DNA of 64,000 nucleotides from a bacterium (GCA_965117045.1 OZ220749.1:2416552-2480551); one strand, 5' to 3'; positions 37,789 to 62,647 are shown, counted from the stretch's first letter. Made by a program: numbers and translations. Notes: generated from the sequence alone by a model not told the origin.

Positions 37789-37825
37789 TACGATCTCCTT
37801 CCCATTCGTCTTTGTGGTTCCTGAA

Positions 37826-40410: not shown

Positions 40411-40485
40411 CTCGAAACAGGAGGCGATCGTCGATCCGGAGTTTACGATCTTGCCGGGCCGCGCTCGGCCGCGGTGATATATGGA

Positions 40486-42087: not shown

Positions 42088-42109
42088 TTTCCAGCCAGCG
42101 CTTCCGGAC

Positions 42110-43795
42110 TCAGTCCATCATGGGGATCTTGACGCCGCGGGTCTTCGCCACGGCCCGGGCCGCTTCGTAGCCGGCGTCGACGTGCCGGGCCACGCCCATC
42201 CCCGGATCGTTGGTGAGCACGCGCTCCAGGCGCCCGGCCGCTTCGGGCGTGCCGTCGGCGACGATGACCTGTCCGGCGTGCAGGCTGTATCCGATGCCCA
42301 CGCCGCCGCCGTGGTGGTAGCTCACCCAGGTGGCGCCGCTCGCCGTGTTGATCAATGCGTTCAGTACGGGCCAGTCCGCGATGGCGTCCGATCCGTCCTT
42401 CATGGCCTCGGTCTCGCGGTTCGGGCTGGCGACGGACCCGCTGTCGAGGTGGTCGCGGCCAATGACGACAGGCGCGGTGACCTCGCCCGAAGCGACCAGT
42501 TCGTTGAATTTCAGTCCCGCCCGGGCCCTTTCGCCGTATCCCAGCCAGCAGATACGGGCGGGAAGCCCCTGGAATTCCACGTGCCGTCGGGCCATCGTGA
42601 TCCAGCGGAACAGGTGATCGTCGTCCGGAAGCAGTTCCAGGATGGCCTGGTCCGTCCGGTAGATGTCCTCGGGATCTCCCGAGAGGGCGACCCAGCGGAA
42701 GGGGCCCTTGCCTTCGCAGAACAACGGACGGATGTAGGCCGGGACGAAACCGGGATAGTCGAAGGCCTCCTGCAGTCCGTTGTCATAGGCGCGCTGGCGC
42801 AGGTTGTTGCCGTAGTCGAAGACCACGGATCCCTGTTTCTGCCAGTCGAGCATGGCCTGTACGTGGACGGTCATGGAGGCGATGGAGCGTTCCTGGTAGG
42901 CGTCCGGATCGCGCTCGCGCAACCGGCGCGCTTCTTCGGGCGACAGCCCGGCGGGGATGTACCCGTAGAGCGGATCGTGGGCCGCGGTCTGGTCCGTGAC
43001 CACGTCGGGCACGATACCCCGGTCAAGCAGTTCTGGAAGGACCTCGGCGGCGTTTCCGATCAGGGCGATCGACCGAGCTTCGCCCGCGGCCAGCGCCTCG
43101 TCCACCCAGCTCAACGCGAGATCGAGGTTCTCCGCCACGGTATCCACCTGGCGAAGCTCCAGGCGCCGGCGGGCCCTCCACGGATCCACCTCCACCAGCA
43201 GTCCCACACCGCCGTTCATCGTGATGGCCAGCGCCTGGGCGCCGCCCATCTCGCCCAGGCCGGCCGTTAACACGAGCTTTCCCGACAGGCTGCCCCAACC
43301 GTGTTTCCGGGCGAGCGCGCCGAAAGTCTCGTAAGTACCCTGCAGGATGCCCTGCGTGCCGATGTAGATCCAGCTGCCGGCCGTCATCTGGCCGTACATC
43401 GTCAGGCCCTCGCGCTCCCAGGCGTCGAAGTTCTCCTGCGTCGCCCAGGCCGGCACCATGTTCGAGTTGGCGATCAGGACGCGCGGCGCGTCCTCGTGGG
43501 TACGGAACACCGCCACCGGCTTGCCCGACTGCACCATGAGGGTCTCGTCGGGTTCCAGGTTCCGCAAGGCGTTCAGGATGGCTTCGAGGGCTTTCCGGTT
43601 CCGAGCGGCCTTGCCCCTGCCGCCGTAGACGACGAGGTTGTCCGGATCGAAGGCGACCTGAGGGTCCAGGTTGTTCTGGATCATGCGGTAGGCCGCTTCG
43701 ATGAGCCAGTTTCTGCAATGCAGCTCGGTTCCCGTCGGTGCTTTCACGATCTGGTCCAATAGGCTGCTTACGCCTTCGATTCCCGGTTCTTCCAC
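42110..43795 (-). CDS. hutU: urocanate hydratase
   Basis: 561 aa. N-terminal [28 protein letters not shown] and NAD-binding GGMGGAQ-like block (GLGEMGGAQ). Confidence 0.9.
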
Positions 43796-44442
43796 TTTTC
43801 GTAGGAGAAATCGGGGCTGGTGATCATGTCGAAGTGGGACCGTTCCCAGGTCCTGATTTCATTCGCCTTTCTCAGGGTGTCGGCTGCTATGTCGAGCGGG
43901 ATCTTCACCACGCCGTCCACGTCCGCGAGCAACAGGTCGCCGGTCTGCACCAGCAGCTGACCGGCCACAAGAGGACGGCCGACGGCCCGCACGTTGAAGG
44001 GGCCGTGACCGGATACCGTGCCGAGGCCCCAGATGGGCAGGCCCGCCGCCCGGATGCCCTCGAGGTCGCGGACGCAGCCTTCGACCACGGCGCCCACTAC
44101 GCCGAGCTTCCTGTGAATATGCGCCATGCCGTCACCGAAGATGGCGGCGCGCTTCGGACGGGTGTCGACGTCCTTCATCACCGCGATCATGGGACCGGGC
44201 GTCTCGTTCAGTACGTCGTAGTAGTCGGGCCAGCTCATATTGGCCGGTGTGGCGTCCAGCGGAGTAACCTCGGAAGTTACGGCGTATCCGATCACGGCGC
44301 CGAATTCAGGGGTAAGGTACTGAATCTCCGGTCCGGTGTAATCGTCGTTCGAAACGCCCTGCACTTTCTCCACGGCGTTGTAAACCGTGGCCGAGTCGAA
44401 TCCGGCCAGACCGTTCAATACGGCATCGTCTACACGGGTCAT
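43768..44442 (-). CDS. RraA family protein (RraA / 4-hydroxy-4-methyl-2-oxoglutarate aldolase-like)
   Basis: 224 aa RraA-like fold pattern (…[14 protein letters not shown]…). First gene of the hut transcription unit. Overlaps the hutU start by 28 nt. Confidence 0.65.
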
Positions 44443-45413: not shown

Positions 45414-46472
45414 TTACCATTTCTCCGGGTCCAGCCCGACCCGGATCCCGGCTTCCTCGATCTGCTGCCAGGTCGTGTCGTCGATGTTGATGCCTTCCCG
45501 CCGGCGCTTCGCCGCCAGGCGGAACTCCGGTTCGCCCGGCATGAGAATCTCGTCGAATCCCGGCGCCGTCCGGCTGGCCTTTACGTGCCGGATCATTCCT
45601 TCGATTTCCTCGAAGTACCATTCCAGGTCCGTAAAGAAGGAAATGTCGTAAACGGTGAAGAGTACCCCGTTGCTCGAAACGGTCTGTTCCCCCTGTGCGC
45701 AACCCTGTCCACTCAGCGTACCGCCCAGGATTTCCACGAGCATGCCCAGGCTGTACCCCTTGTGGGCGACGATGCCGCCCATGGGCAGGATCGCGCCGTT
45801 GGGCGGCGGACCTTTTATCACCGTAGGGTCGGTCGTAGGATTTCCTTCGTGGTCGATCAGCCAGCCTTCAGGAACCCGCACGCCCTTGTTCGCGGCCACA
45901 CGCACCTTGCCCTCCGCGACGACGGAGGTGGTCAGATCCACCATGACGGGATCGTCGTCCCGGCGAGGGGCCGAGAAGGCGATGGGATTGGTGCTGATGC
46001 GTCCGTCGATGCCGCCGAAGGGTGGTATCTGGCGTCCGAACCGGCCCGCGTTGACGAAGGCCAGTCCGATCAGCCCTTCCCGGGCCGCCATGAGCGGATA
46101 GGCGCCCACACGCCCCACATGACTGGTGCGCCGGAGGGAAACCGTGGCCGTGCCGTGTTCTCGCGCCTTCTTCATGGCCAGTTGCATGGCAATAGTACCG
46201 CCTACCTGGCCGAGGGCGCCGCCATTGTCCACCACCGCCGTGCACGGACTTTCCCGTAGGACCTGCACTTCGGCCTTCGCCTTGAATCGACCCTCGTCCT
46301 TGATGGCCTTGACGTATTCCGGAATTCGAATGGCGCCGTGGGAGTCGTGGCCGAAGAGATTGGAATCCACGAGATGGTCCACGACGCTGCGGGCGTCGTC
46401 CGCCGTACAGCCGGCCGCCTCCATCACTTCGCAGCCGATTCGATGCAGTTTGTCAGGGGTAATTACTGGCAT
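45414..46472 (-). CDS. Ldh family 2 oxidoreductase (malate/L-lactate/sulfolactate dehydrogenase-like)
   Basis: 352 aa. Conserved DSHG..R block (FGHDSHGAIRIPEY) and TNPIAF typical of Ldh_2. Confidence 0.75.
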   Translation of the reverse strand: MPVITPDKLHRIGCEVMEAAGCTADDARSVVDHLVDSNLFGHDSHGAIRIPEYVKAIKDEGRFKAKAEVQVLRESPCTAVVDNGGALGQVGGTIAMQLAMKKAREHGTATVSLRRTSHVGRVGAYPLMAAREGLIGLAFVNAGRFGRQIPPFGGIDGRISTNPIAFSAPRRDDDPVMVDLTTSVVAEGKVRVAANKGVRVPEGWLIDHEGNPTTDPTVIKGPPPNGAILPMGGIVAHKGYSLGMLVEILGGTLSGQGCAQGEQTVSSNGVLFTVYDISFFTDLEWYFEEIEGMIRHVKASRTAPGFDEILMPGEPEFRLAAKRRREGINIDDTTWQQIEEAGIRVGLDPEKW

Positions 46473-46490
46473 TTTCTTCCTTTCCTGGTC

Positions 46491-47540
46491 TTATCTGCTG
46501 AACTTCTCCAGTTTCCTCTTCAGTCCCGGACGGTCGAGCACTGCCCGGTTGACCACGTAGGGAGGCTCATCTCCCCGGGAGACGGCCAGGGCCGCCTTCA
46601 TGCAGTCGTGTCCGATATCGCGAAACAGCTCGTGGGTCCAACACGAAGCGTGAGGCGCCAGTATGACGTTGGGAAGGGACAGCAGGGGATCGTCGGCGTC
46701 TGGTGGTTCCCGCTCGAAAACGTCAATGGCCGCGCCTGCTATCCAGCCTTCCTGCAACGCCTGCTCCAGTGCTTTCTGGTCGACGATGGCGCCACGGGCC
46801 GTGTTGATCAGGAAGGCGTCCTCCCGCATCATGCGCAGTTCCCGCGGACCGATCAGGTACCGGGTGTGTTCGTTCAACGGGCAGTGGATGGTAACGAACG
46901 TGCTGCGCCGCAACAGGGTCTCCAGATCGACCAGGGTAACGCCCAGTTGCGCGGCCTCCTCCCCGGACACCGCGGGATCAGAGACCAGGATTTCGGACGG
47001 CTCGAAGGGCGCCAGCATGCGCACCACCTCGCGGCCGATCATGCCCATGCCGATCAGGCCGACCACGCGGCCCCGGATCTCGCATCCCATGTGATCGAAT
47101 CGGATGTCCCAGTCGTCGTTCCGTACGATGGCGTCCTTGATCGTCACCCGGTGGCAAAGACCGAGCATCAGGGCCATCGTCGCGCTCGCCACGGGTCTCC
47201 GCGTGGCCTCGGGGGTGATCGTCACCATGACGTCCGCTTCCGTCGCGGCGTCCATATCGATCATATCGTAGCCCACGCCCGTCCGGGCGATGAGCGCGAG
47301 ACGCTCGACGCCCGCGAAGGACTCCCGCGTGTAGGATTGTCCCATGGATATCACCGCGTCGAAACCGGCGAGCTGATCGGGAGTGACGGGACTCAGGTCC
47401 TCCTCCAGGAAGGCGCGGAAAACCCCGGCTTCGTCCAGCAGATCGACGCCGAAATCGTCAAACACGACCCCACCGTCGGGACCCAGCAGGTCGGCGACCA
47501 GGGCTACGCGGAATGCATCGGTCATAAACTGTCCGTTCAC
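46491..47540 (-). CDS. D-isomer-specific 2-hydroxyacid dehydrogenase family, NAD-binding
   Basis: Rossmann GLIGMGMIGREV. Catalytic-region pattern ...R...E...H (APHASCWTHE). Confidence 0.8.
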   Translation of the reverse strand: MNGQFMTDAFRVALVADLLGPDGGVVFDDFGVDLLDEAGVFRAFLEEDLSPVTPDQLAGFDAVISMGQSYTRESFAGVERLALIARTGVGYDMIDMDAATEADVMVTITPEATRRPVASATMALMLGLCHRVTIKDAIVRNDDWDIRFDHMGCEIRGRVVGLIGMGMIGREVVRMLAPFEPSEILVSDPAVSGEEAAQLGVTLVDLETLLRRSTFVTIHCPLNEHTRYLIGPRELRMMREDAFLINTARGAIVDQKALEQALQEGWIAGAAIDVFEREPPDADDPLLSLPNVILAPHASCWTHELFRDIGHDCMKAALAVSRGDEPPYVVNRAVLDRPGLKRKLEKFSR

Positions 47541-47572
47541 TCTTTAGTATCGTCAGACCAGGTTCCGGGACG

Positions 47573-49621
47573 TCAGAACAGGATCTGGGACGTGGACTTG
47601 GCGATCAGCACCAGGGAGACGGCCGCCATGCCGATCAGCCCCAGGCCGCATCCGTATCCGGCCAGGATAACAGGTGCATAGGCCCGCCACCTTTTTTCTC
47701 CGTAGCGCCGTCCGAAATAGAACCTTCCCAGCATGGCGCCGATGAACGTGGGCAGCGTGTAGTGTATCCAGGCGCCGGTGCCCAGTCCCGCGACCAGACC
47801 GTAGAAGAGCAGCGGCGGGGCCTTGAGCAGGCTCAGGACCCCGTAGAGGGCCACCGTGAACCCCATCCCGGCGCCGATGTACTCCCACTTTATGAGTTGC
47901 CCGATCACATCCGATCCGCCCGGAAGGGTCGACTTGATCCAGATCGTTTCCATCGTCGCCTGCAGCGGCCACATCTTTTCTACGAAGGGATAGGCCGCGG
48001 ACGGTATGGGCGCCAGTTTCCAGATCAGGGCGTAGAACAGGAAACTGAATACGATGAGCAGCAACAGGCTCAATATATACAGTTTGACCAGGCTTGGAAA
48101 TCGCGTTCGGGTGAGTTCAAGCTGCCGGAAGGTCGCAACCACGCCGCTGTGATCGAAGAGCGGAACCGGCGCGAACCAGATGGCCACGCCCTTGTAGCCC
48201 GACAGGTAGAAGGACCCCTCTCGCGCGTAGGGGAAGGACGATCCGTAGGGCGAGCCCGTGAGGCCGATCATGCGCGCGCCGATGTAGGAGAAGAAGGGCG
48301 TCCACAGGAACCCGAATACCACGGAGATCCATACCGGGAACGAGGGTTCCAGGTAGTAGACCAGGAGGATGAAGCACACGGTCGAAACCGCCCAGAGCGC
48401 GATGGGAATGGGCAGCCTGAAATCGCCCCGGTCCGGCGGCGGCCGGCGGGGTCCCTGGCCTCCGGATGCGCCGTCCGGGTCTCGCCTCAGGGCGCGGGCG
48501 AAGGCGACCAGGCCGATCAGGCCGATGACCAGCGAAGTGCCGATCGAGGAGAAACTCAGCCAGAAATCGATGGTATTGTTGATGGAGGTGGGGATGGTGC
48601 TCATCCCCGGCGCCCAGCTGTGCAACAGGCCGAAGTGGTAGAGGGCCGGGTTGGCGATAAAGGTGACGACGAAGGAACTGATGAAGGTGCCGACCACGAT
48701 CCAGAAGGGAAGGACGAAACCCACCAGGAGCGTGGCCATGTCCGTGCCGATGCCGATGGGCGACGCGGGCAGCACGTCCCGTACCCGAGGCGTGAAGTCC
48801 GCGAAGGGAATGGGGAAGACCTCGACGCCCTTGGTCAGCACCACGCCCGATACCGTCGGGACGACCACGTAGAGTATGCCCCAGCCCAGGCCGATCATCG
48901 CGCCGACGGTAAACAGGCGCCATCGCCAGGTCTCCTCGCCCGCCGACGATTCCGCCAGCGCGGTGGCGCCGGCCGCCTGTACGGGCGCCAGGGGAAAGGG
49001 CAGGCGCTCGGTGTCGGCTGTGATCCGGAAGAGCACGTAGCCCAGGGAAAGGGCGTTGACCAGGCCGAGGATAGACACGAGGACGGCCAGGAGAATGGGT
49101 TCCAGCCACTCCATGGAGAAGAGGGTCCGAGTAATCAGCGAATCGGAACCCCGGGGCAGCGACACCCACTGCGGAAGCAGCTGGGCCAGGCCGTCCGCCT
49201 GGGGGGACTGGATCAGGTACTGGAACCAGATCATCTTGGCGAAAGGCGCGCCGTGCACCGACGATCCGGCGGCCATGCCGCTGGCGCCCAGTCCCGTTGC
49301 CGCCAGACCGGCGGCGAGCCAGTAGAGGATGATGGCTTCCTGGGGCTTCAGCTTGATGAACAGGCGCTTCCCGATCTCGATGAACATGATGATGGTGACC
49401 CATTCCGCGGCGCCCGCGAAACTCTTTCCGGTCACCAGTTCCAGGTAGATCGCCCCCGGAAGCATGACCAGCCCGACGAAGAAGGCGGCCCAGATGATCC
49501 GGCTGCTGAACCCGTCCTCGTAGGGCAGGCTGTCCGGAACGATCTGCCACCGGTCGTCCTGTTCGGCGGCCGCCGCGTCCTGGTCCCGCGGTTCCTGCTG
49601 TTCACGCCTGGTGTCACTCAT
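47573..49621 (-). CDS. large polytopic membrane protein of unknown function (paralog B)
   Basis: 682 aa, at least 14 hydrophobic segments. Shares blocks with the 715-aa protein (G.GAPF...P..W; YIG.R.IG..G.PY). Charged N-terminal tail. Confidence 0.55.
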   Translation of the reverse strand: MSDTRREQQEPRDQDAAAAEQDDRWQIVPDSLPYEDGFSSRIIWAAFFVGLVMLPGAIYLELVTGKSFAGAAEWVTIIMFIEIGKRLFIKLKPQEAIILYWLAAGLAATGLGASGMAAGSSVHGAPFAKMIWFQYLIQSPQADGLAQLLPQWVSLPRGSDSLITRTLFSMEWLEPILLAVLVSILGLVNALSLGYVLFRITADTERLPFPLAPVQAAGATALAESSAGEETWRWRLFTVGAMIGLGWGILYVVVPTVSGVVLTKGVEVFPIPFADFTPRVRDVLPASPIGIGTDMATLLVGFVLPFWIVVGTFISSFVVTFIANPALYHFGLLHSWAPGMSTIPTSINNTIDFWLSFSSIGTSLVIGLIGLVAFARALRRDPDGASGGQGPRRPPPDRGDFRLPIPIALWAVSTVCFILLVYYLEPSFPVWISVVFGFLWTPFFSYIGARMIGLTGSPYGSSFPYAREGSFYLSGYKGVAIWFAPVPLFDHSGVVATFRQLELTRTRFPSLVKLYILSLLLLIVFSFLFYALIWKLAPIPSAAYPFVEKMWPLQATMETIWIKSTLPGGSDVIGQLIKWEYIGAGMGFTVALYGVLSLLKAPPLLFYGLVAGLGTGAWIHYTLPTFIGAMLGRFYFGRRYGEKRWRAYAPVILAGYGCGLGLIGMAAVSLVLIAKSTSQILF

Positions 49622-49625
49622 CCGC

Positions 49626-50783
49626 TTATTCGGTCCTTACGTAGTCGCCCGCCTTGTCCCAGTCCGGCCGCGACAGGCCGTTCAGGTCCCAGACCACCTC
49701 GCCGGCCCGCACCGTCAGCAGGCACCTCAGCCGCCGGTCGCCGCGCATGCGCGCATGGCCCGAGTCCACGAAACCGAATTCTCCGTATTCCAGCTCCAGC
49801 ACGGCGACGTCCGCCTCCGCGCCGATGCTCAGCGTACCCAGTTCCGGGCGCCGGATGGCGCGGGCGGGATTGCGCGTGGAGCGCATGACCACGTCCTCCA
49901 GCGTCATTCCCATGTTCAGGCATTTGGACATGGTCGTGTTCATGCTCGCGTTCGGTATCAGGGCGCTGTACTTGTGGAGGTCCGTGCTGATGGTATCCGG
50001 CAGGAACCCCTGCTCGATGGCCGGCACGGCGATGCGGAACCAGAAGCTGCCGCCGCCGTGGCCCAGGTCGAACAGGATGCCCTTGTCCCGCGCCTCCCGG
50101 ACGTAGTCGTTCACCCGGCCGTGCCCGTCCAGCAGGGGGATGTGCTGCGCGTAGAGGTGCGTATGAATGTCGCCGGGACTCAGCTTCTTCAGCAGCAGGT
50201 CCCGGTAGCTGCGGGTCGGCTTCGGCGCGAAATCGATCATGGCGATGGTGCCGCTCCGCCGGGCCGCCTCGACGGCGCCGTCCACCGCCTCCCATCCCGG
50301 TCCCCCGAAATGGGCGGTCTTGGACCCGACGACGTGTTCCGGGTACCTGCTGATCATGTCCGCGCAGGGTACCGGGTCCATCTCCGAGACGTCCTGCTCC
50401 ACGGCGCCTTCCATGCCGGCGCCCACGATGTTGATCAGCGCCAGCACGCGGGTAATGGACTCGGCGATGACCGTGTCCTTGAAGTCTTCGAACTTCTTCC
50501 ACCCCGCGCCCCCCGTATCCAGCACCGTGGTCACCCCGTTGGGGAGCACATGGGCGTCGGGGAAAACCCACCCCCGGTATCCACCGTAAGCGTGCATGTG
50601 GATGTCGATCAGCCCGGGCGTGACGTAATGGCCGTGGACGCGGGCGACCTTCCGGCCGTGCTCCGCCGGGATGTCGTGCTCCACCGCCGCGATCAGGCCG
50701 TTGTCGACGGCTACGTCCCGGCTTCCGCTGATGCCGTTCTCGGGATCGATGACGTGGCCGCCCTTGATGATCAGATCGTACAT
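49626..50783 (-). CDS. amidohydrolase-family metallohydrolase (D-aminoacylase / dihydroorotase-like)
   Basis: HxH metal motif DIHMHAYGG. Additional His/Asp ligands (HTHLY..., DLGHGGG). 385 aa. Confidence 0.7.
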   Translation of the reverse strand: MYDLIIKGGHVIDPENGISGSRDVAVDNGLIAAVEHDIPAEHGRKVARVHGHYVTPGLIDIHMHAYGGYRGWVFPDAHVLPNGVTTVLDTGGAGWKKFEDFKDTVIAESITRVLALINIVGAGMEGAVEQDVSEMDPVPCADMISRYPEHVVGSKTAHFGGPGWEAVDGAVEAARRSGTIAMIDFAPKPTRSYRDLLLKKLSPGDIHTHLYAQHIPLLDGHGRVNDYVREARDKGILFDLGHGGGSFWFRIAVPAIEQGFLPDTISTDLHKYSALIPNASMNTTMSKCLNMGMTLEDVVMRSTRNPARAIRRPELGTLSIGAEADVAVLELEYGEFGFVDSGHARMRGDRRLRCLLTVRAGEVVWDLNGLSRPDWDKAGDYVRTE

Positions 50784-50802
50784 CGCCGCTCCTCTCCTCC
50801 GA

Positions 50803-53800
50803 TTACAGGGCCGTGTGACGATCGAAAGCCCTGACGTCCCGGTACCGCGCCTTTATGGGCTCGGCAATGGTCCGCCACACGAGAAACCGCTTCCTCAGTA
50901 CGGTAAAGAACCGCCGATTGATCGTCTGCCACTGCGCCAGGTCGCCGCTGCGTCGGTGGATCACGATCAGGATGCGGTACAGTCTCTCGTGAAGCACGGG
51001 TTCCAGTTCAAGCCGCACGTCCTGGCTGATGGCGAGGTCATAGGGCGCCAGCCAGACGGTGGACGCCACGTGATACGTGTCGAAGGTATCCCCCGGTATC
51101 GCGTCGAGCGTGGTTCCCTCCGCGACGAAGTCCTCCGCCGAACTGTCTTCATGCGTCTGGAAGATGTGGTTCAGGTAACCCGACAGCGGCAACGCTTCGG
51201 GGACGGTCACCGTGAAGGGAAACTCGAAGCACCAGTCGTCTTCGTCGGGCGGCGGGGGCGACCAGCGACGCGTCACGTCCTCTACCGTCATGTCCGCGGC
51301 CTTCTTTGCCGGGTAGAGGGTGGACAGGAAGACGATGGCCATGACGACCACCGTGGCGTACACGGTCGACAGGGAGGAATAGTTGAGCGACATGCCGCCC
51401 AGCAGGTCGAATTGCGAGAGTCCCATGGTGATGATCTGGCCGGCCAGGTAACCGAAGACGGCCCCGAGGGTCGCGAACACGGCGGCTTCGGCGATGAACA
51501 GGGCGGCGACGTGGTTCGGCGCCAGGCCGACCGCGCTGTAGACGCCGATTTCCCGGAACCGTTCGAACACGGCGCCCATCATGGTGTTCAACACCAGGAA
51601 CGCCGCGATGAGCACCGGGATGATCAGGTTGGCCAGGCCCGAAACCGAAGTGGCGCCCAGGGAGCTGTAAACCCTTACCTCGTCTTCCAAGCCGACGAAC
51701 ACGGCCAGGAGGACCCGCGACATGAAGGCCTCCACGGAGTCGCGGAGCTCTTCGCCGCCGTCGAAGCCCGCGATCGCCACGGACCGCGTGGACCCGTTCA
51801 GGTCGAGCGTCTGCCGGTAGGGCAGGACCAGCACGTTGCGGGACGGCAGGTGCTCGGAGGCCTGGATGGTGGACATGAACACCTCCACGTCCATTTCGGT
51901 CAACGAGCGCGTTATCGAGAAGCTGGCGGGCATGATGCTTTCGTCGTCCATGTCCCGGTAGGCGTCGAATCCATCGGAATCGAGCAGTCCGATCACGGTA
52001 TAGCGTCCACCGAGGATCTCCACCTCCGCCGTACCCACGTCCTCCGGTCCCACGTCCAACCGTTCGGCCAGTTCCGTGGGCAGCAGGCAGGCCGCCCTTT
52101 CGTCCGGGGCGAACCACCGTCCGCCCGGCACCAGGTAGCGGTCCAGACCGGTGACGGCCGGTTCGTCGGCGTGCAGTCCCAGGATGGACTGTACCGTGCT
52201 GGCGGTCCCCTTGCCCGGCGCGCGCAGATCGATGTAGGGACTGGTCATGTCCTCCGGCTCGTACCAGGACCGGGGCACCACGTCCGCCTGGTCTTCGAAG
52301 GCGTTTTCCACGTAGGGCAGGAAGGACGTGGGCAGGGAGTGCCACGACAGGCTGCGCATGAGGACGCCGTCGTACGGCGGGGTGTTCTCACGGTCCAGCG
52401 TATAGAACTGGATGCCGGTCCGAAAGGAAGTGAAGGACAGTACGGTGAAGGTCAGCAGGGTCAGCGTGACCGCCGTCAACGCCGTGCGCATCTTCCGCTT
52501 GCGCAGGTTCGATATGCCCAGGGAAATGGCCACCGCCGTGGCGCTCAGCCGGCCGATGTCCGCCTCGTGGAGGCCGGCCGCCGACCGGGTCAGGTTCTTC
52601 ATTTCGGTGTCGAACCGGGTGACGATCATGGTGATGATGATCAGCGCCATGGCCAGGATGATGAAGGCGAGAAAGACCATGTACGGCGTCAGGCTGAGCT
52701 GAAAGGCGGGGTGCACGTTCTGCAGCAGCATGAAGACCGCCGCGAAGATGACGCCCACCGAGGCCAGCCGCTTCCGAATGTCTGTGAAACCGAAGAACAG
52801 CCGTTCGAGGAAGAAACAGAAGGGGACGAGCAGCATGAAGTAGAACACGATGCCGTCCACCGTGTCGTCCGCGGCGTACCGCACGTCGGGATAGGCCCGC
52901 GCCTCGTAGCCCCACGCCTCCCTCGACTGTGCGGCGAAGGCGTCGTACCGGCGGTTCTCCAGGGCTTCCCGGGCGGCTCGAAGCGCCCGGGTGCTTTCCT
53001 CGTGCAGCTCGGCGGCCCGGGCGTTGGTCACGCCGTGGTCCTCCAGTTTCATCAGGCGGGCCCGGTTGAGCGACCACAGGTCCAGGGCGCTCTGGTAGAA
53101 GGGGTAGAGGATCAGGCCCTGGTCTGCCGTGAATCCGCGTCCCTGGGCGAGGGCCATGGCGTCGTCCGAGATACTTTCCGGCGGATCGTCGAGCCACGAT
53201 TCGGGCGTGTTGGTCAGCAGGTACTTGACGCCCCGGGGACCGGAGCTCATGAACATCTTGACCCGGTCCTCGGCCCGGGCGAAGACCACCGCGGCGTTGG
53301 TCATCCAGTTGCCGAAGAAACTCTGATCCTCCACGAAGGCCGCGCCGTACTTGCGCAGCGGACTGTTGTCCCGGCCGAGTACGGTCAGGTTGTCGAGGGC
53401 GACGAAGACGCCGGGGTCCACGATGTCGAAGAGGTTGATCTCCTCGCAGGGGAAGAGGACCTGGATGGTATTGTTCACCTTGGAAGAATTCGGCACCGCG
53501 AGGGGAAAGGTGGCGTTGCCCTCTTCACCCAGGTCCGGGGCGTACACGATCCGGCCGTCGACGCCCAGGCCGTAGCTGCGCAGTTCCGTCGGTCCCCGGG
53601 GGAACCGGACCATGGAATGCCTGAAGTGCCCCAGCGAGTCGGCGTGGGTAACCATGAACCCCCGCACGCCGCTGTGGCTCTGGTATCCGGGCTCGTAGAC
53701 GACCAGGGCATCGGACACCGGGGTATTGGGCTTGAAGAAATCCACCGTGCGGTCGAATTCGAGGACCCGGCCCTCGATGTCGCGGCCCTCGTCCTTGAGC

Positions 53801-55371
53801 CGTATCGACTCGTCCACGTCGAAGGCTTCGGGATCGGACAGCATGGCGGGAAGCAAGGTGCCGAGCGTCCGGATCTGCCGGACCAGGTTGGGGAAATCGA
53901 CATACTCGATCCGGTCCTTCGGGGTATCGATGAGGAGCCGGTTGTCGTTCACCGTGGCGAAGGTCATGCCGTGGAGTCCGGCGAGCGTGACCATCTCGTG
54001 GTCGAAGGCGGGCCCCGCGGGCATGAAGCTCTCCTGCGACCGGAGCGGGTGCGTCAGCGTGTTGAGGTAGGCCGTCCGGCTGTCCACTTCATCGTGGACC
54101 CCGGCCTTGCGCGCGTAATTCAGGTACCGGTCCGCGTAGGGTTCGAACAGGATATCCAGATTCGAGGTGAAGAAGATGAAATCGCCGTAGCTGAACAGGC
54201 CGACCTGATCCGCCCTGCTGGTCAGGTCCAGGCCCAGGAAGAGCGTGAAGGGTATCCGGTCTTCTTCAGATATCCGCTCCAGGAAGAACTCGTCCTTCCG
54301 CTGGTGCCGGTCCAGGAAGTCGTTTACGCCCTGCAGCCCGTGGAAATGGGCGGACGTGGCCAGGAACAGCACGGTGTATCCCGGCGGATGGGCCCGGAGC
54401 ACGTCCATCAGCTCCAGCATGGCGGCGATGCCCCCCGCGCCCTCGGCGCCCGGCGCCAGTCCCGGTACGACCGACATGGCGTCGTAGAACGCCGACAGCA
54501 CGACGGTCCGGTCTTTCCATTTCTCCGTGCCGTCGCCCCCCGGCAGCGGTTCGTCCCGGCCCGGTATCCACCCCATGACGTTCCAGGTCTCGGCCCGCTC
54601 CCAGGTCATGCGTCCCCGGATCGTCACTTCGACCTCGCCGGACCGCGCGGCCGCCAGGACCGCGGCGGCATGCGGGTCCGGGACCCAGAAGCGCGGCACG
54701 TCGGCGGGCACGTCCAGGATCTTGCGCTGGGCCTGGTTGTTGGTTACCGCGCCGGGGCCGTTGTCGTAGAACAGGACAGCCTGCGCGCCGAGCATACGCG
54801 CGTTGAGATACTGGTCGCGCCCGTCGAAATCGACCAGGACGATGCTGCCCTCGATCTCCTTCCCGTTGAAGGCCTGGAACTCGCCCTGCCGGCCGTAGTG
54901 CAGGGGGCCCCGGATCCCGTCCGGAAAGGAGTTCAGCCGGACCAGGTTGGGCCAGAACTGGTACACCGGTATCTCGGTCTCCACGGAGTCGTGCACGGTC
55001 AACGTGAAACCGTGGTCGACGGGCGAGGATACGGTAAAGGTGTCGACGGCGACCTCGGTCAGGCCGCCGGCATGGAAGGCATCGACCACGTATTCCATGG
55101 CCGCCCGGTTTCCGGGATAGCCGACGACGCGCGACGGGTTTTCGCTCATCGCCCGGACATGGGCCTCCACGCGTTCCGGGGTGACGATTTCGGATACCTC
55201 TTCCCAGGACACCGGCGCCTCCTCGAGGGGCCTGGGCGGCACGTCCTCGGGAAGGGATACGATCCTCAGGATCACGTGTTCCGTCACCCAGGCCGGCCCG
55301 GCCACGGCCACGGCGAGGAACAACAGGACGCCCACGGCGAGGAAGAAGGTTCCGAATATCCGCGAATACAC
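50803..55371 (-). CDS. giant fusion protein: TM + PA/M28-peptidase-like ectodomain + complete MacB/FtsX-type permease + C-terminal domain
   Basis: GTG start. N-terminal TM. PA-domain-like GSIVLVDFDGRDQYLNARMLGAQAVLFYD. M28-like block YDAMSVVPGLAPGAEGAGGIAAMLEL. Multi-TM linker. MacB-like TM1 (RKRKMRTALTAVTLTLLTFTVLSF) then a roughly 300-aa periplasmic domain. FtsX 3-TM bundle (NTMMGAVFERFREIGVYSAVGL...). Roughly 200-aa cytoplasmic tail. Continuous 1522-codon ORF. Confidence 0.7.
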   Translation of the reverse strand: MYSRIFGTFFLAVGVLLFLAVAVAGPAWVTEHVILRIVSLPEDVPPRPLEEAPVSWEEVSEIVTPERVEAHVRAMSENPSRVVGYPGNRAAMEYVVDAFHAGGLTEVAVDTFTVSSPVDHGFTLTVHDSVETEIPVYQFWPNLVRLNSFPDGIRGPLHYGRQGEFQAFNGKEIEGSIVLVDFDGRDQYLNARMLGAQAVLFYDNGPGAVTNNQAQRKILDVPADVPRFWVPDPHAAAVLAAARSGEVEVTIRGRMTWERAETWNVMGWIPGRDEPLPGGDGTEKWKDRTVVLSAFYDAMSVVPGLAPGAEGAGGIAAMLELMDVLRAHPPGYTVLFLATSAHFHGLQGVNDFLDRHQRKDEFFLERISEEDRIPFTLFLGLDLTSRADQVGLFSYGDFIFFTSNLDILFEPYADRYLNYARKAGVHDEVDSRTAYLNTLTHPLRSQESFMPAGPAFDHEMVTLAGLHGMTFATVNDNRLLIDTPKDRIEYVDFPNLVRQIRTLGTLLPAMLSDPEAFDVDESIRLKDEGRDIEGRVLEFDRTVDFFKPNTPVSDALVVYEPGYQSHSGVRGFMVTHADSLGHFRHSMVRFPRGPTELRSYGLGVDGRIVYAPDLGEEGNATFPLAVPNSSKVNNTIQVLFPCEEINLFDIVDPGVFVALDNLTVLGRDNSPLRKYGAAFVEDQSFFGNWMTNAAVVFARAEDRVKMFMSSGPRGVKYLLTNTPESWLDDPPESISDDAMALAQGRGFTADQGLILYPFYQSALDLWSLNRARLMKLEDHGVTNARAAELHEESTRALRAAREALENRRYDAFAAQSREAWGYEARAYPDVRYAADDTVDGIVFYFMLLVPFCFFLERLFFGFTDIRKRLASVGVIFAAVFMLLQNVHPAFQLSLTPYMVFLAFIILAMALIIITMIVTRFDTEMKNLTRSAAGLHEADIGRLSATAVAISLGISNLRKRKMRTALTAVTLTLLTFTVLSFTSFRTGIQFYTLDRENTPPYDGVLMRSLSWHSLPTSFLPYVENAFEDQADVVPRSWYEPEDMTSPYIDLRAPGKGTASTVQSILGLHADEPAVTGLDRYLVPGGRWFAPDERAACLLPTELAERLDVGPEDVGTAEVEILGGRYTVIGLLDSDGFDAYRDMDDESIMPASFSITRSLTEMDVEVFMSTIQASEHLPSRNVLVLPYRQTLDLNGSTRSVAIAGFDGGEELRDSVEAFMSRVLLAVFVGLEDEVRVYSSLGATSVSGLANLIIPVLIAAFLVLNTMMGAVFERFREIGVYSAVGLAPNHVAALFIAEAAVFATLGAVFGYLAGQIITMGLSQFDLLGGMSLNYSSLSTVYATVVVMAIVFLSTLYPAKKAADMTVEDVTRRWSPPPPDEDDWCFEFPFTVTVPEALPLSGYLNHIFQTHEDSSAEDFVAEGTTLDAIPGDTFDTYHVASTVWLAPYDLAISQDVRLELEPVLHERLYRILIVIHRRSGDLAQWQTINRRFFTVLRKRFLVWRTIAEPIKARYRDVRAFDRHTAL

Positions 55372-55372
55372 G

Positions 55373-57367
55373 CTAGTCTATCCCGTAGATATGATGGCCG
55401 GCGTGGGGAAACCACACGTAGTCGACGAACATGGAGATGACCACGCCGGTGACCACGCCGAAGATCAGGCCCAGGAAGAAGGGCTGTCCCTTCCGGTACA
55501 GTTCGATGCCGCCGACCCACATCATGATGCTCTTGATGACCCAGCACACGAACATGGACGAGACGATCGCCCGGGCGGGCCAGGAGTATGAAAGGAAGAA
55601 TCCGAGGGGATGCAGCGGCCAGCCCGGCAGCCGGGCCCTCAGCGTCATGAGCAGAAACATGAGCGCACCGCCCACCATGAAGAACATCAGCCGCGCCGTG
55701 TCCGGTCCGAAGGGATCTCGCATCTTGGTCAGTGTTTCATTGTAGGGGATGGTCGATCCGATCCGGCCGAACCACCAGCCGTTGGTGAACTGGCGCGTAC
55801 CCAGGTCGAACCCCATGTAGATCGTCCAGACCAGCGAGATCACCACGCCGATCACCGCGGCGGAAAGAAGCGACCAGCCCAGGCCGCGTTGCCAGCGCGT
55901 GCCGATCTCGGACAGCTTGGCCGCCTGCATGAAGGCGGGCATGAAGGTCGACTTGATCTCGCTGACAGGTCCGTAGGTCTGAGCCATGGCCGTCATGGTG
56001 GACATGGAAAGGTTGGCCGACCCGACCGAATAGAACACGAGCACCTGGGCGATCATGGGCGAACGCACGTAGGGCAGCCCGGCCTCGGCGATGATTCGGG
56101 ACACGCCGATATAGATGATGAACACGCCGGCGAGGAGGAATACGGCGATGGGCACGCTCATGCCCAGCTGGTTCAGCCAGACCACCCCGTAGACGAAACC
56201 GCCGATGAATCCGAAGACCGCGACCCGGTAGGGCAGCATCTCGTCCGAGTCGTCCAGGTCCGACCTGCGGCCGAAGGCCTGGGAGACCACGGCGCGGATG
56301 TGAAACCGCGCCCGCCAGAGCCCCCATCCCACGAAGAGGATGAACGCGCCCATGTTCTGCCAGTCCAGCATGGGATGGATCGAGGTGTAGTTGTCCCGTC
56401 CCGGGATGTCGTACCCGATCCGGTGGGCGATGCCCACCTGGATGATCCCGATCATGTAGAATACCCAGAAACCGGCGAGGACGTCCAGGTTGACGAAATA
56501 GGAAATGCCCAGGATGGCCGGGCGGAAGTTGATTTCCAGCGGCGGAAAACCCTCGCCGAACACGATGGGCGGCGCCGACCCGAAATAGGGGAACTGGGGC
56601 ACGACCGGGGTGAAGAACCCGACGATGTTGTACATCATCACGCAGAACGGGATCGAAAAGCCGATCCAGAACCGCTTCTCCGAGAGAAAGGCCGGGATTC
56701 GGCTCGGCGAATCCATGCCGCGGGTGAAGGCGAGGGGGATCTGCATCATGGGAAAGACGAGCTTCTCGTGTTCGACCCACTGCCGCCTGAGGATGACCAC
56801 GAGACACAGGCCCATGAAGATGATCGGGACGATGAAGGTCAGCCACCAGAACAGCGGAATGCCCCACACGCTCCAGGGAATGGACGCGCCGGGCGGGATC
56901 CCGTCCACCAGCCACGTAAGGGCGTTGCCCTGGTTCGTGACGTTCGCCCAGGGTTGCAGGTACGGGTAGAAGTACTCGGCCCACTGGTTCTCGGGCGTCG
57001 CCAGCAGATAGGGGGCCATCAGCGTGGAGATGAACGGGGCGCCCATGCCGTTGGTCGTCAGCCCCGATGCCGCCATGCCCATGACCAGGGGGATGACGAA
57101 CTCGTGGGGCGTGAGGGCCCAGTCCTTCTTCCACCTCGCCAGCACCACGTTGAATATGACCAGGTACCCGAAGGCCAGAAACAGCGCGCCGATGTGGAGA
57201 TGATCCGCGCCCAGCTGGGACGAGGCCATGGTGTACTGGAAATAGGGGACGATCAGGGAGATCAGGACGACGCTCGTCAGGCCCAGGAGAATGGATCGCG
57301 GCGTAATGATCCGGGTCGCGGTCGCACGGACAGCGGAGGCGGAAACACTTTGCTGTACTGAGGCCAT
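55373..57367 (-). CDS. large polytopic membrane protein of unknown function (paralog A)
   Basis: Start moved to MASVQQ at 57367. The longer ORF runs to 57520, but its first roughly 50 aa look like translated intergenic sequence. Stop is 1 nt from the GTG start of the fusion gene. Homologous blocks with paralog B. Confidence 0.55.
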   Translation of the reverse strand: MASVQQSVSASAVRATATRIITPRSILLGLTSVVLISLIVPYFQYTMASSQLGADHLHIGALFLAFGYLVIFNVVLARWKKDWALTPHEFVIPLVMGMAASGLTTNGMGAPFISTLMAPYLLATPENQWAEYFYPYLQPWANVTNQGNALTWLVDGIPPGASIPWSVWGIPLFWWLTFIVPIIFMGLCLVVILRRQWVEHEKLVFPMMQIPLAFTRGMDSPSRIPAFLSEKRFWIGFSIPFCVMMYNIVGFFTPVVPQFPYFGSAPPIVFGEGFPPLEINFRPAILGISYFVNLDVLAGFWVFYMIGIIQVGIAHRIGYDIPGRDNYTSIHPMLDWQNMGAFILFVGWGLWRARFHIRAVVSQAFGRRSDLDDSDEMLPYRVAVFGFIGGFVYGVVWLNQLGMSVPIAVFLLAGVFIIYIGVSRIIAEAGLPYVRSPMIAQVLVFYSVGSANLSMSTMTAMAQTYGPVSEIKSTFMPAFMQAAKLSEIGTRWQRGLGWSLLSAAVIGVVISLVWTIYMGFDLGTRQFTNGWWFGRIGSTIPYNETLTKMRDPFGPDTARLMFFMVGGALMFLLMTLRARLPGWPLHPLGFFLSYSWPARAIVSSMFVCWVIKSIMMWVGGIELYRKGQPFFLGLIFGVVTGVVISMFVDYVWFPHAGHHIYGID

Positions 57368-57533
57368 GGAGTGGGCGGAGAATGGAGTGGTCGGAAAACG
57401 GTTCTTGCGCTTTTGGCAAAGGGATTGAATTAAAAAAAAGGTCCAGCATATGTAAGGTCGCGCGCGGGATAAGTCAAAGAAAAACGCCTTTCGCCGAAGT
57501 CCTTCAGCCCCGTTGCACAAGCCGTTTTAGTGG

Positions 57534-57562
57534 TTGACACTCCAGTGGTTTACGGGGATATT
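57534..57562 (+). promoter_or_regulatory. candidate sigma-70 promoter for the MMPL gene (TTGACA-17-GATATT)
   Basis: Consensus -35 TTGACA at 57534..57539. 17-nt spacer. Weak -10 GATATT at 57557..57562. Consistent with a GTG start at 57604 preceded by GAGGAA. Confidence 0.25.
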
Positions 57563-57603
57563 TCCATACCTTGGATGTGCGCGTTTCACACGAGGAATGC
57601 ACC

Positions 57604-60184: not shown

Positions 60185-61840
60185 GTGTCGAACAAGGCCG
60201 GTTACATGAACGCTCATGCAGTGGATTACCGCCAGGTGTTGCCGGACCACCTGCTGCATACCTTTCTCGAAGACTTCGAGTCGTTACGGTCTTTCTATAC
60301 CCACGATCCACGGGACCCGGAGGTATGGCCGCGCATGATCGAGGCCGTGCAGTCCCGCGCCGTTCCACCGCCGCGAAAGGCGCTCGCCAAGATCCTCGAG
60401 GCACAGAACGCCCGTTACGGGGCGGACGAAACCGTCCTCGCCAACACCCGTTCCCTCGCAGGGGAAGATGCCTTCGTCGTTTCCACCGGGCAGCAGACGG
60501 GCCTGTTGACGGGTCCGCTGTTCACCATCTACAAGGCCGTGACGGCGATCAAGCTGGCGAGACGGGTCTCGGAGGAGACCGGCGTGCGGGCCGTGCCCGT
60601 TTTCTGGATGGCCGCCGACGACCATGATTACGCCGAAATCAACCATGTCCATGTCTGCCGCACGGACGGGAACGCCCTCAGGTTCGAGCTGAGCCCCGAC
60701 GACCCCAACGACCGCCGGTCCGCGAGCGACCGCCTGCTCGGACCCGGAATCGAAGCGCTGCTCGGGCAGTTCGCCGAGGCCCTGCCCGATTCGGAGTACC
60801 GCCCGTCCGCCATCGAGGCGCTTCGGCGGCACTGTACCGCCGGGACCTCGTTGTCCGACGCTTTCGCGCGGCTCATGACACTGCTGTTCAGGGAACAGGG
60901 CCTGGTCCTCGTGGACCCCACCGACCCGGCGCTGAAACCCCTTATGCGTTCCGTGTTCGAGCAGGAAATCCTGGAACCGCTCGCCACCACGCGTTCGGTC
61001 CTGGAGGCGTCCCGCGATCTGGAGGACGCCGGGCTGCATCCCCAGGTCTCCCGATCCCCGGACGCGGTGAACCTGTTTCTGTACGAGGACGGGCAGCGCA
61101 ACGCCCTGCGCTACGAGGACGGGCGGTTCAGCAGCCGGGACGGAAGCCTTTCCTTCACCGGCGAGGAACTGCTACGGATGCTTAAGGATACACCCGGTCG
61201 GTTCACGCATAACGTCATCACCCGGCCCCTGGTGCAGGACACGCTGTTCCCGACGCTGACCTATATCGGCGGACCGGCGGAAATCGCCTACTACGGCCAG
61301 CTCGGCGGGGTCTACCGCCGGTCCGGCCTGCCCTTCCCCGTGGTCTATCCCCGCGCGTCCCACACGCTGGTCGGCGCGAGGACCGCCCGGGTCCTGGAGA
61401 AGCACGGCCTCGCGATCTCCCATTTCGTCCAGGGCATCGAATCCGTGGTCGACCGAAAACTCCGGGAAGAGATGCCGGTACCGGTCACCGAGGGTCTCCG
61501 GGCCGCACGAGGCGACGTGGAAGCCCATTACAGAAACCTGAAGGGACAGGTGACCGCCATCGATCCCGGTCTGAGCCGGATCGTCGAGGCCTCGGAGCGG
61601 AAGACTAACTTCGCCCTGGGCAGGCTGGAGGAAAAGACCCTCCGCGCCCTGAAGAAGGCGGACGGTGTCATGCGCGGCCAGATCATGCGGGCGGACCGCC
61701 TGTTGTATCCCAACGGGCACCTCCAGGAACGGGTGGCCAACATCTGGCAGTACGTCGCCCTGCACGGATTCGACGTCATGAACACCATCTTCGAGGCCAC
61801 GGACGAAACGGACTTCAGACACAGGATGACCCCCCTATGA
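60185..61840 (+). CDS. bshC: bacillithiol biosynthesis cysteine-adding enzyme
   Basis: Roughly 540 aa with the BshC-characteristic block VSTGQQTGLLTGPLFTIYKAVTAIKLA and C-terminal coiled region. GTG 60185, or the ATG at 60206, could be the start. Confidence 0.75.
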   Translation: MSNKAGYMNAHAVDYRQVLPDHLLHTFLEDFESLRSFYTHDPRDPEVWPRMIEAVQSRAVPPPRKALAKILEAQNARYGADETVLANTRSLAGEDAFVVSTGQQTGLLTGPLFTIYKAVTAIKLARRVSEETGVRAVPVFWMAADDHDYAEINHVHVCRTDGNALRFELSPDDPNDRRSASDRLLGPGIEALLGQFAEALPDSEYRPSAIEALRRHCTAGTSLSDAFARLMTLLFREQGLVLVDPTDPALKPLMRSVFEQEILEPLATTRSVLEASRDLEDAGLHPQVSRSPDAVNLFLYEDGQRNALRYEDGRFSSRDGSLSFTGEELLRMLKDTPGRFTHNVITRPLVQDTLFPTLTYIGGPAEIAYYGQLGGVYRRSGLPFPVVYPRASHTLVGARTARVLEKHGLAISHFVQGIESVVDRKLREEMPVPVTEGLRAARGDVEAHYRNLKGQVTAIDPGLSRIVEASERKTNFALGRLEEKTLRALKKADGVMRGQIMRADRLLYPNGHLQERVANIWQYVALHGFDVMNTIFEATDETDFRHRMTPL

Positions 61841-62562
61841 AACTCGATGTGCTCGCCGTATCCCCCCACCCGGACGACGTGGAGCTGCACTGCGGCGGAC
61901 TAATGATCCGATTCGCCGACCTGGGTTATGCCACCGGTATCGTCGATATGAGCCTGGGCGAGATGGGTACCCGGGGGACGGTCGACGGGCGGAAAGGGGA
62001 AGCGGCGGCGGCTGGCGAAGTGCTCGGGCTGTCCGACAGGCTGAACCTCGAACTGCCGGACGCCCGCATCGGTACCTGCCCGACGCACCGCGACGCCCTC
62101 ATCGACGCCATACGCCGGTACCGGCCCGAGCTGCTCCTCGTCCCCCACGAGGTCGCCCGCCATCCCGATCACGGGGCGACCGCCCGGCTGGCGAGAGATG
62201 CGGCTTTCCTGGCCGGCCTGGAGAAGATCGATACGGACCACACGGCCTTCCGGCCCCGGAAAGTGGTCTTCTACCTCACCCACCACCGCTACCAGGAACC
62301 CCGTACATCGTTCATCGTCGACATCACCTCGACGTTCGCCCGCAAGATCGAAGCCGTCAAGGCCCACCGGTCACAGTTCCACGACCCGGACTCCAACGAA
62401 CCGGAGACCTTCATCAGCCGGCCCGGGTTCCTCGAAGAGGTCGAAGCCCAGAGCCGCTACTATGGACAGCTGATCGGCGCGCGGCACGGGGAGCCCTTCG
62501 TCGTCCGCGAGTACCTTTCAATCGACGATCCCCTGGCCCATTTCGCAGGACGCACGGAATAG
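61837..62562 (+). CDS. bshB: bacillithiol biosynthesis deacetylase (PIG-L/LmbE family)
   Basis: LmbE motif VLAVSPHPDDVELHCGG. His/Asp metal ligands (HPDH). Start overlaps the bshC stop. Confidence 0.8.
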   Translation: MKLDVLAVSPHPDDVELHCGGLMIRFADLGYATGIVDMSLGEMGTRGTVDGRKGEAAAAGEVLGLSDRLNLELPDARIGTCPTHRDALIDAIRRYRPELLLVPHEVARHPDHGATARLARDAAFLAGLEKIDTDHTAFRPRKVVFYLTHHRYQEPRTSFIVDITSTFARKIEAVKAHRSQFHDPDSNEPETFISRPGFLEEVEAQSRYYGQLIGARHGEPFVVREYLSIDDPLAHFAGRTE

Positions 62563-62647
62563 CACGGCAGGCCGGGCGCCCGGACGGGCCAGGTTTGCAC
62601 AGCGGGCTGGAACGCGAGCGTCCACGCACCAGAAGAGGCGGAAACCG

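Follow-up and report, generated by a model that had tools for sequence, protein, structure and literature searches.

The element described here is a run of six codirectional open reading frames (ORFs) on the minus strand of a 64,000-nt stretch of bacterial DNA (GCA_965117045.1 OZ220749.1:2416552-2480551), which we refer to as the window. The ORFs, numbered g1 to g6 in order of transcription, occupy window positions 45414-57367 and are separated by gaps of 1, 19, 4, 32 and 18 nt; they encode a membrane protein, a giant fusion of PA, M28 and FtsX domains, an amidohydrolase, a second membrane protein and two oxidoreductases (Table 1). An original prediction, made from the sequence alone, had described six codirectional minus-strand genes spaced by 1 to 32 nt, and all six ORFs were recovered where it had placed them. 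The GC contents at third codon positions (GC3) were 0.77-0.90 in the six frames, the coding signature of a genome with approximately 63% GC. Pfam and NCBIfam searches returned the same domains as had been proposed for g2, g3, g5 and g6. The length of 715 aa assigned to g1 was incorrect, as it corresponds to the maximal TTG-started ORF reaching 57520, whereas the gene end given in the same prediction, 57367, is an ATG that yields 664 aa, in line with the 644-676 aa of g1 homologs.

The operon-like unit is real, and, in line with the original prediction, we found no described system that corresponds to it. Our literature search found no description of the g2 architecture, of its obligate linkage to OPT-fold proteins, or of the function of DUF6785, DUF6784 or the g4 family, while the folds of the individual components (OPT/YSL, MacB/FtsX, PA/M28 and START/KA1-like) are all known.

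The best match of g2 shared 97% identity and came from a Gemmatimonadetes metagenome-assembled genome (MAG; VXTP01000016.1). Full-length relatives with 37-97% identity and approximately 1450-1900 aa were present in MAGs of Latescibacterota, Gemmatimonadota, Zixibacteria, Handelsmanbacteria and Planctomycetota. A scan of species-representative genomes, with one genome per species, yielded at least 582 g2-encoding loci, and at least 13 assemblies among the best 80 loci carried two of them. When the C-terminal 168 residues of g2 were used as the query, 1204 cluster representatives at 50% identity were obtained, most of them very large, and the match was located at the C-terminal end in all of the listed proteins but P0424, P0457 and P0480. 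A short architecture consisting of FtsX and the C-terminal domain was also sought: the three matches of approximately 600 aa that were inspected at the sequence level (P0362, P0379 and P0395) start midway in a g2-type sequence and were read as N-terminally truncated gene calls.

We compared the surroundings of g2 by tblastn and all-against-all clustering in 88 of 90 loci, leaving out two near-identical duplicates. Loci in which g2 was flanked by 8 kb or more on each side were treated as full-flank loci (n = 65, of which 52 lay outside the clade of the window), and loci with at least 65% g2 identity were assigned to the window's clade (n = 14). A g1- or g4-family gene was found within 10 kb of g2 in all 65 full-flank loci, and both were found in 35; outside the window's clade, the corresponding numbers were 52 of 52 and 22 of 52. 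The arrangement of this core varied (g1-g2-g4, g2-g4, g2-g1-g4, g4...g1-g2, or g1 divergent from g2), and many loci, drawn from different phyla, had g4 directly 3′ of g2. Reverse look-ups that started from two g4 homologs led in both cases to an adjoining g2 gene. The g2 and g4 sequences co-diversified, with a Spearman rho of 0.80 overall and 0.67 for pairs with a g2 identity below 0.6, and none of 500 permutations reached the observed value; for g2 and g1, rho was 0.56 overall. We conclude that g2 forms a conserved core unit with g4, its tight partner, and with g1, whose linkage is looser. The conserved gene neighbourhood that the original prediction had proposed to look for thus exists, with a g1- or g4-type gene beside g2 in every full-flank locus.

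The same comparison corrected the idea that the six genes belong together as a set. The full order g1-g2-g3-g4-g5-g6 occurred only in the window's clade, in which g3 was present in 13, g5 in 12 and g6 in 12 of the 14 loci, one member lacking both g5 and g6. Neither g3 nor g5 was present in any of the 52 full-flank loci of other clades, and a g6-like Ldh_2 gene was present in six of them, on the opposite strand; the six-gene set was therefore rejected as a conserved unit. The genes for the amidohydrolase and both dehydrogenases have been added to the core in a single Gemmatimonadota-like clade only, in which g3 is placed between g2 and g4 at distances of 4-19 nt.

Such linkage might also arise if the components worked independently, with g2 as a membrane-anchored ectoenzyme or receptor, the OPT-fold proteins as stand-alone permeases and their adjacency reflecting a shared regulon. 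We consider this explanation improbable. It would accommodate the DUF6785 genes that exist without g2, the variation among locus types in how g1 and g4 are ordered, oriented and spaced with respect to g2, the apparent swapping of g1 partners between clades (rho = 0.14) and the fact that no fusion of g2 to an OPT-fold protein was found among the longer g2 homologs, whose extra length consists only of periplasmic insertions. It is difficult to reconcile with the co-occurrence in 65 of 65 loci, with the position of g4 directly downstream of g2 in numerous loci from different phyla, with the co-diversification of g2 and g4, which extends to comparisons between clades, and with the outcome of both g4 look-ups.

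The tightest partner of g2, g4, had no Pfam or NCBIfam match. Only one of the 61 members of the g4 family, P0234, passed the OPT profile (Pfam PF03169; E = 7e-7; 28.7 bits, cut-off 25.8; positions 132-619 of the 623 in the model), and the other 60, including g4 itself, did not. An AlphaFold2 model of g4 (pLDDT 78.3, pTM 0.82) was compared with the PDB by Foldseek and matched barley Yellow Stripe 1 (HvYS1; 7wst/7wsr) with E = 1.5e-9 and a probability of 1.00, corresponding to TM-scores of 0.58-0.67 over approximately 700 columns at 14% identity. This was the sole significant match, the next one having E = 0.04 and a TM-score of 0.12. Judged by its predicted structure, g4 is an OPT/YSL-fold protein outside the current sequence family. 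The g4 family has a mean column identity of 67% across phyla and carries the NCBI name 'peptide transporter'.

The profile searches that had been suggested for both membrane proteins succeeded for g1, which matched DUF6785 (366.6 bits, cut-off 25, residues 22-523) and DUF6784 (81.2 bits, cut-off 26.4, residues 561-651), and gave no Pfam family for g4. The two proteins had been called paralogs. Their homology is borne out by an hhalign comparison of the g1 and g4 families (probability 92.8%, E = 4.1e-7, 515 collinear columns, 66-648 against 62-638), and motifs common to the two family profiles include ERLPFP/EKLVFP; close paralogy is not, since BLASTP gave a marginal match with E = 5e-4 over 75 residues. 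Neither family profile matched a PDB sequence. Based on the profile comparison, g1 is probably a further branch of the superfamily of g4 and would share the OPT fold, and the earlier suggestion that the membrane pair is transporter-like, perhaps OPT, is borne out by the g1-g4 alignment and the match of the g4 model to HvYS1. Most loci of the window's clade (L011-L021, positions 1-2000) contain a second DUF6785 gene, 30-35% identical, at a distance of approximately 8 kb upstream of g1; in the window it would lie just past position 64000.

YS1 is a proton-coupled importer (PMC9691689), and members of the OPT family import peptides, glutathione and folates (PMC12687453). With a g4 model that matches only this OPT/YSL protein, the partners of g2 look like importers. 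Import is also suggested by two distant DUF6785 genes without a g2 neighbour, because these genes are located in catabolic surroundings that are typical of uptake genes, among sulfatases, GFO_IDH_MocA oxidoreductases, short-chain dehydrogenases/reductases (SDRs) and AP_endonuc_2 (TIM-barrel isomerases).

The giant protein g2 was described from hydropathy, the family alignment and a model of residues 826-1522 (pLDDT 78.5). It would start with a transmembrane (TM) helix (residues 5-23), followed by a periplasmic region (24-836), three TM helices (837-855, 869-887 and 899-917), a short cytoplasmic loop, a further TM helix (965-983), a second periplasmic domain (984-1242), the remaining TM helices (1243-1352) and a cytoplasmic C-terminus (1353-1522). 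The positions of its parts are listed in Table 1 together with the other features of the locus.

Table 1. Genes, g2 domains and the upstream intergenic region in window coordinates
Feature	Position	Strand	Description
g1	55373-57367	-	664 aa, polytopic membrane protein; DUF6785 + DUF6784
g2	50803-55371	-	1522 aa, 8 TM; PA + Peptidase_M28 + FtsX by Pfam
g3	49626-50783	-	385 aa, metallo-amidohydrolase, EF_0837/PRK09237-like family
g4	47573-49621	-	682 aa, OPT/YSL-fold transporter (predicted); no Pfam family
g5	46491-47540	-	349 aa, D-isomer-specific 2-hydroxyacid dehydrogenase
g6	45414-46472	-	352 aa, Ldh_2-family oxidoreductase
g2 residues ~57-500	53872-55203	-	periplasmic PA + M28-like domain; alignment to active aminopeptidases 2ek8 and 6hc6
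g2 residues ~501-836	52864-53871	-	second periplasmic region; no Pfam or PDB sequence match; family-conserved
g2 residues 837-917	52621-52863	-	three extra TM helices before the MacB-type module; hydropathy, model helices 3-104
g2 residues 965-1352	51316-52479	-	MacB/FtsX-type module; TM1, ~260-residue periplasmic domain, TM2-4
g2 residues 1363-1522	50806-51285	-	conserved cytoplasmic C-terminal domain; order beta-alpha-beta-beta-beta-beta-alpha
Intergenic, g1 / divergent MMPL gene	57368-57600		presumed promoter region

The ectodomain of g2 matched Peptidase_M28 (36.6 bits, cut-off 21.3) and PA (26.2 bits, cut-off 23.9) in Pfam. Its closest solved relatives were the secreted PA-domain aminopeptidases 2ek8 (E = 7.5e-18) and 6hc6, together with YwaD, and weaker matches were obtained to nicalin (E = 1e-6) and the transferrin receptor TfR1 (E = 2e-3). 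ERMP1 is a membrane-fused M28 protein comparable to g2. We mapped the M28 site through the alignments to 2ek8 and 6hc6 and counted residues per column over 121 members of the g2 family. The canonical set, consisting of the ligands His-Asp-Glu-Asp-His and a catalytic Glu within the motifs HxD, D, EE, D and H, was not found in g2. The first His ligand is replaced by Phe in 50 members and Tyr in 45 and is retained as His in 26; the bridging Asp is Glu310 in 118, the catalytic Glu is His342 in all 121, the ligand Glu is Phe343 in 109, Asp382 is retained in 120, and the last His is Asp482 in all 121. The resulting site of g2 is formed by F295, D297, E310, H342, F343, D382 and D482. As far as the alignments tell, the canonical di-zinc aminopeptidase site is absent. 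Because the replacement residues are invariant across 121 proteins, simple decay of the domain is disfavoured, and the pattern suggests a remodelled functional site. The peptide trimming that had been ascribed to this domain is doubtful, as the catalytic Glu and most zinc ligands are missing.

In the C-terminal half of g2, four TM helices form a bundle of the FtsX type, and TM1 and TM2 are separated by a periplasmic domain. Residues 965-1352 have a MacB/FtsX-type fold, with Foldseek matches (E = 5e-10) to 5xu1, LolC/E, MacB and HrtB, and the coupling-helix motif E-R-x-x-E-I-G is invariant in the family alignment (E1270, R1271, E1274 and I1275). No nucleotide-binding domain (NBD) was detected in g2 by Pfam or NCBIfam. 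The C-terminal domain, which starts right after a YPAKKAA motif at the point where ordinary FtsX-family proteins end, appears to resemble the START/Bet v 1/AHSA1 (SRPBCC) and KA1 domains in its fold, and the order of these elements would place it beneath the membrane domain, where an NBD docks. The description of g2 as a PA/M28-FtsX fusion was thus correct but had overlooked this conserved cytoplasmic domain.

The MacB-type fold brings up an alternative in which g2 provides the membrane component of a type VII ATP-binding cassette (ABC) system with its ATPase encoded elsewhere. ATP-driven mechanotransmission would then move a membrane or periplasmic substrate, such as a lipid, a lipoprotein, a lipid-linked peptide or a peptide of the cell wall, or present it to the M28-like domain fused to g2, in parallel to FtsEX-EnvC and YbbAP-TesA, and the OPT-fold proteins would only recycle the released material. 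Besides the fold and the invariant coupling helix, this alternative can draw on the precedent of type VII systems that are paired with periplasmic hydrolases (10.1101/2025.05.16.654284), on the similarity of the cytoplasmic domain to lipid-binding START/KA1 folds and on the genes for a SurA-like peptidyl-prolyl isomerase (PPIase) and for type IX secretion system (T9SS) cargo that are found upstream in a large number of loci. Of 56 loci, on the other hand, only one had an ABC ATPase-like ORF within 3 kb of g2 and 14 had one within 10 kb, mostly as part of an unrelated importer of the binding-protein-dependent (BPD) type; the ATPases at +8 kb were rejected as partners of g2 since they are grouped with BPD_transp_1 permeases of an ordinary importer. 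No regulator gene is present inside the six-gene cluster, as had been noted before, and an ABC signature motif of the LSGGQ type is absent from the entire 64-kb window. The C-terminal domain begins where FtsX-family proteins end and would take the docking place of an NBD, the catalytic residues of the M28-like domain are non-canonical, and genomes contain several copies whose enzyme neighbours vary, all of which speaks against such a machine. The original prediction had left the choice between an import pathway and an envelope machine; both readings are still live, with import as the better supported, if tentative, one and the envelope machine as an unlikely but serious competitor.

Further genes recur in the neighbourhood of g2. 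A SurA-like PPIase was found in 22 loci, an uncharacterised protein of 263 aa directly upstream in 16, T9SS C-terminal domain (T9SS-CTD)/discoidin proteins in 14 and AP_endonuc_2 in approximately 10, one of whose genes overlaps the g2 stop codon (L001); a secreted uncharacterised protein of approximately 870 aa was also recurrent. In Latescibacterota (L077 975-9950; L094 1-3215; L091 1-9983), a conserved codirectional set precedes the core and consists of the ~870-aa secreted protein, the SurA-like PPIase and a protein of ~262 aa, with T9SS-CTD/discoidin proteins around. L091 additionally carries ExbB/ExbD/ExbD upstream, and its g4 and g2 are separated by an FGE-sulfatase gene. In L077 (14643-15280), a pair of genes of 84 and 126 aa, which by eye has the look of a VapBC-type toxin-antitoxin module, is located between g2 and g1, and the 126-aa ORF occupies the same position in nine loci.

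The enzymes of the window's clade were assigned at the level of families. g3 scored 370.7 bits against NCBIfam NF006689, 0.3 bits under the cut-off of 371, and contains the HxH motif 'DIHMH'; its PDB relatives (8je0 'Amidase', 2ogj, 8wzy and 2ics) have only generic or structural-genomics names, and no paper assigning a substrate to the g3 family was found in the literature search. g5 matched 2-Hacid_dh_C in Pfam with 186 bits and reached the cut-off of no NCBIfam equivalog, such as the GhrB-type and PGDH models. g6 matched Ldh_2 in Pfam with 357.7 bits; its nearest NCBIfam model, the YbiC-like NF007504, was not reached (299 bits against a cut-off of 336), and its PDB relatives 1v9n, 2g8y and 2x06 place it nearest to YbiC-type, sulfolactate and malate dehydrogenases. 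Because no signal peptide or TM segment was seen by eye in g3, g5 or g6, these proteins are presumably cytoplasmic.

We tentatively favour, at somewhat less than even chances, the reading that g2 and the OPT-fold permeases form a nutrient capture-and-uptake module with clade-specific cytoplasmic catabolism. The periplasmic platform of g2, composed of the PA/M28-like domain, the uncharacterised second region and the MacB-type periplasmic domain, would bind or atypically process a peptide-like or amide-linked substrate, which may sit in or at the membrane. The product would be imported by g4, and more variably by g1, on the proton gradient, by analogy to the characterised OPT/YSL transporters. 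In the window's clade, g3 may then cleave an amide bond of the imported compound in the cytoplasm, and g5 and g6, as 2-hydroxy/2-oxo-acid oxidoreductases, may convert the released acid. Within this scheme, physical association of g2 with the permeases, inward transport, the type of substrate, the functions of g3, g5 and g6 and any movement of the MacB-type module are inferred.

Apart from the match of g4 to a proton-coupled importer, the uptake reading draws on several features of the loci. The loci look catabolic in that g3 is encoded between g2 and g4, other loci contain other small-molecule enzymes, and secreted PA-domain aminopeptidases are the nearest relatives of known structure for the g2 ectodomain. 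Finally, the several copies per genome and the changing accessory genes make the loci resemble substrate-specific utilisation loci.

Several observations weigh against uptake. The characterised MacB/FtsX-type proteins all function in ATP-driven exporters, extractors or mechanotransducers, and none in an importer (PMC5985334; 10.1101/2025.05.16.654284). A complex of g2 with the permeases is a proposal drawn from genomic linkage, which for g1 is weak between clades (rho = 0.14). The M28-like site has His342 in place of the catalytic Glu and lacks most zinc ligands, which makes trimming doubtful. Many Latescibacterota loci have codirectional envelope and secretion neighbours (SurA-like PPIase, T9SS-CTD and secreted uncharacterised proteins) and not catabolic enzymes, and the accessory enzymes vary from locus to locus and do not point to a particular substrate. 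The START/KA1-like cytoplasmic domain points to lipids or hydrophobic ligands, and an uptake model leaves it unexplained.

A second idea, to which we assign the same low likelihood as to the envelope machine, also involves this cytoplasmic domain: g2 might be a MacB-type mechanotransmission protein that has lost its ATPase, carries the START/KA1-like domain at the NBD position and acts as an integral receptor or gating subunit of the OPT-fold permeases. Such an ATPase-free machine could serve binding-protein-dependent import or the gradient-powered extraction and processing of a membrane-associated substrate. The uptake reading and the envelope machine can also be combined, with g2 extracting or presenting a substrate that the OPT-fold proteins then import.

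The match of g4 to HvYS1 permits a further alternative, in which the module imports a metallophore-metal complex in the manner of YS1/YSL and the His/carboxylate site of the M28-like domain is a receptor for a metal or chelate. HvYS1, the sole structural match, is an Fe(III)-phytosiderophore transporter, and E310, H342, D382 and D482 are retained invariantly. As the only significant match in the PDB, however, HvYS1 indicates the fold and not the substrate; genes for metallophore biosynthesis, a TonB-dependent receptor or a metal regulator were not consistently found near the loci, and the enzymes of the window operon are a hydrolase and dehydrogenases. We regard metal-chelate uptake as very unlikely.

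The operon is bordered upstream by a divergent MMPL gene followed by a bacillithiol-type bshC/bshB/bshA set, and downstream by a convergent DUF2911 gene followed by a hut operon. Scans for promoters and terminators gave matches at chance level, and the sole consensus promoter match in 57368-57600 lies on the plus strand. The MMPL gene directly abuts g1 in the window; in L008, L009 and L010 (approximately 3000-7700), genes for a GAF-HisKA hybrid kinase, a GAF-HD protein and a Lactamase_B protein are located between the two, and these three genes are absent from the window. The bacillithiol-biosynthesis-like genes (60185-63769, plus strand) encode bshC, a PIG-L-type deacetylase and a GT4 glycosyltransferase in a row, in a genome of Gemmatimonadota type. 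The histidine-utilisation set (36934-44442, minus strand) comprises urocanase, histidine ammonia-lyase and two amidohydrolases together with an RraA-like gene and a creatininase gene; the latter two also come after the six-gene operon in the related loci L008 and L010. Elsewhere in the window, an 801-aa duplicated MacB_PCD + FtsX permease, which is ADOP-like, is encoded at 12428-14833 (plus strand) with no ABC ATPase gene near it. Two paralogous genes for 268-aa S-adenosylmethionine (SAM)-dependent methyltransferases (24418-25224 and 25829-26635, plus strand) flank a 151-aa gene, and beside this pair the GC content dips to approximately 50% (20000-24000), compared with 60-66% elsewhere.

The g2 family is large and uncharacterised and is dominant in phyla from which few or no members have been cultured, namely Latescibacterota, Gemmatimonadota, Zixibacteria and Planctomycetota. 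If the core is an uptake system, it would provide widespread sediment, soil and marine bacteria with a new route to organic nitrogen or carbon and would explain what DUF6785, DUF6784 and an unnamed OPT-like family do. If a MacB-type protein works with secondary transporters and without an ATPase, FtsX/MacB-type domains could no longer be assumed to be ATP-driven in every case, and g2 would be the first accessory subunit in the biology of the OPT family. As a permease subunit, it would define a new class of machine in which a type VII ABC membrane domain is coupled to proton-driven secondary transport.

Among known systems, the type VII ABC systems (FtsEX-EnvC/PcsB and YbbAP-TesA, as well as MacAB-TolC, LolCDE, HrtBA and YtrEF) share with g2 the four-helix FtsX-type bundle, the large periplasmic domain between TM1 and TM2, the coupling-helix motif and a hydrolase-like periplasmic partner, which in g2 is fused in cis. 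They differ in that g2 lacks a fused NBD, usually has no gene for an ABC ATPase in its vicinity, contains a START/KA1-like domain after TM4, three extra TM helices and an N-terminal ectodomain of 810 residues, and is obligately linked to OPT-fold secondary transporters, a linkage unreported for type VII systems. The OPT/YSL family (TC 2.A.67; PF03169; HvYS1 7WSR/7WST) and g4 have the overall predicted fold and a size of approximately 660-680 aa in common, and the one g4-family member that passes the Pfam OPT threshold does so across nearly the whole model. In contrast, g4 is only 14% identical to YS1, 60 of 61 members of its family do not match the OPT profile, g1 belongs to the separate Pfam families DUF6785 and DUF6784, and g4 always adjoins a MacB-like giant.

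The binding-protein-dependent secondary transporters TRAP DctPQM and TTT TctABC are similar in concept only, combining an extracytoplasmic capture component with a gradient-driven permease, as we propose for g2 with g4 and g1; there is no kinship in sequence or fold, and the proposed receptor g2 is a membrane-integral protein of 1522 aa and not a soluble substrate-binding protein. Like g2, transferrin receptor 1 and nicalin have a membrane-anchored PA domain inserted in an M28-like fold that has lost the canonical zinc-binding and catalytic residues, but in g2 the replacement residues are invariant in 121 proteins and the membrane part is of the MacB type.

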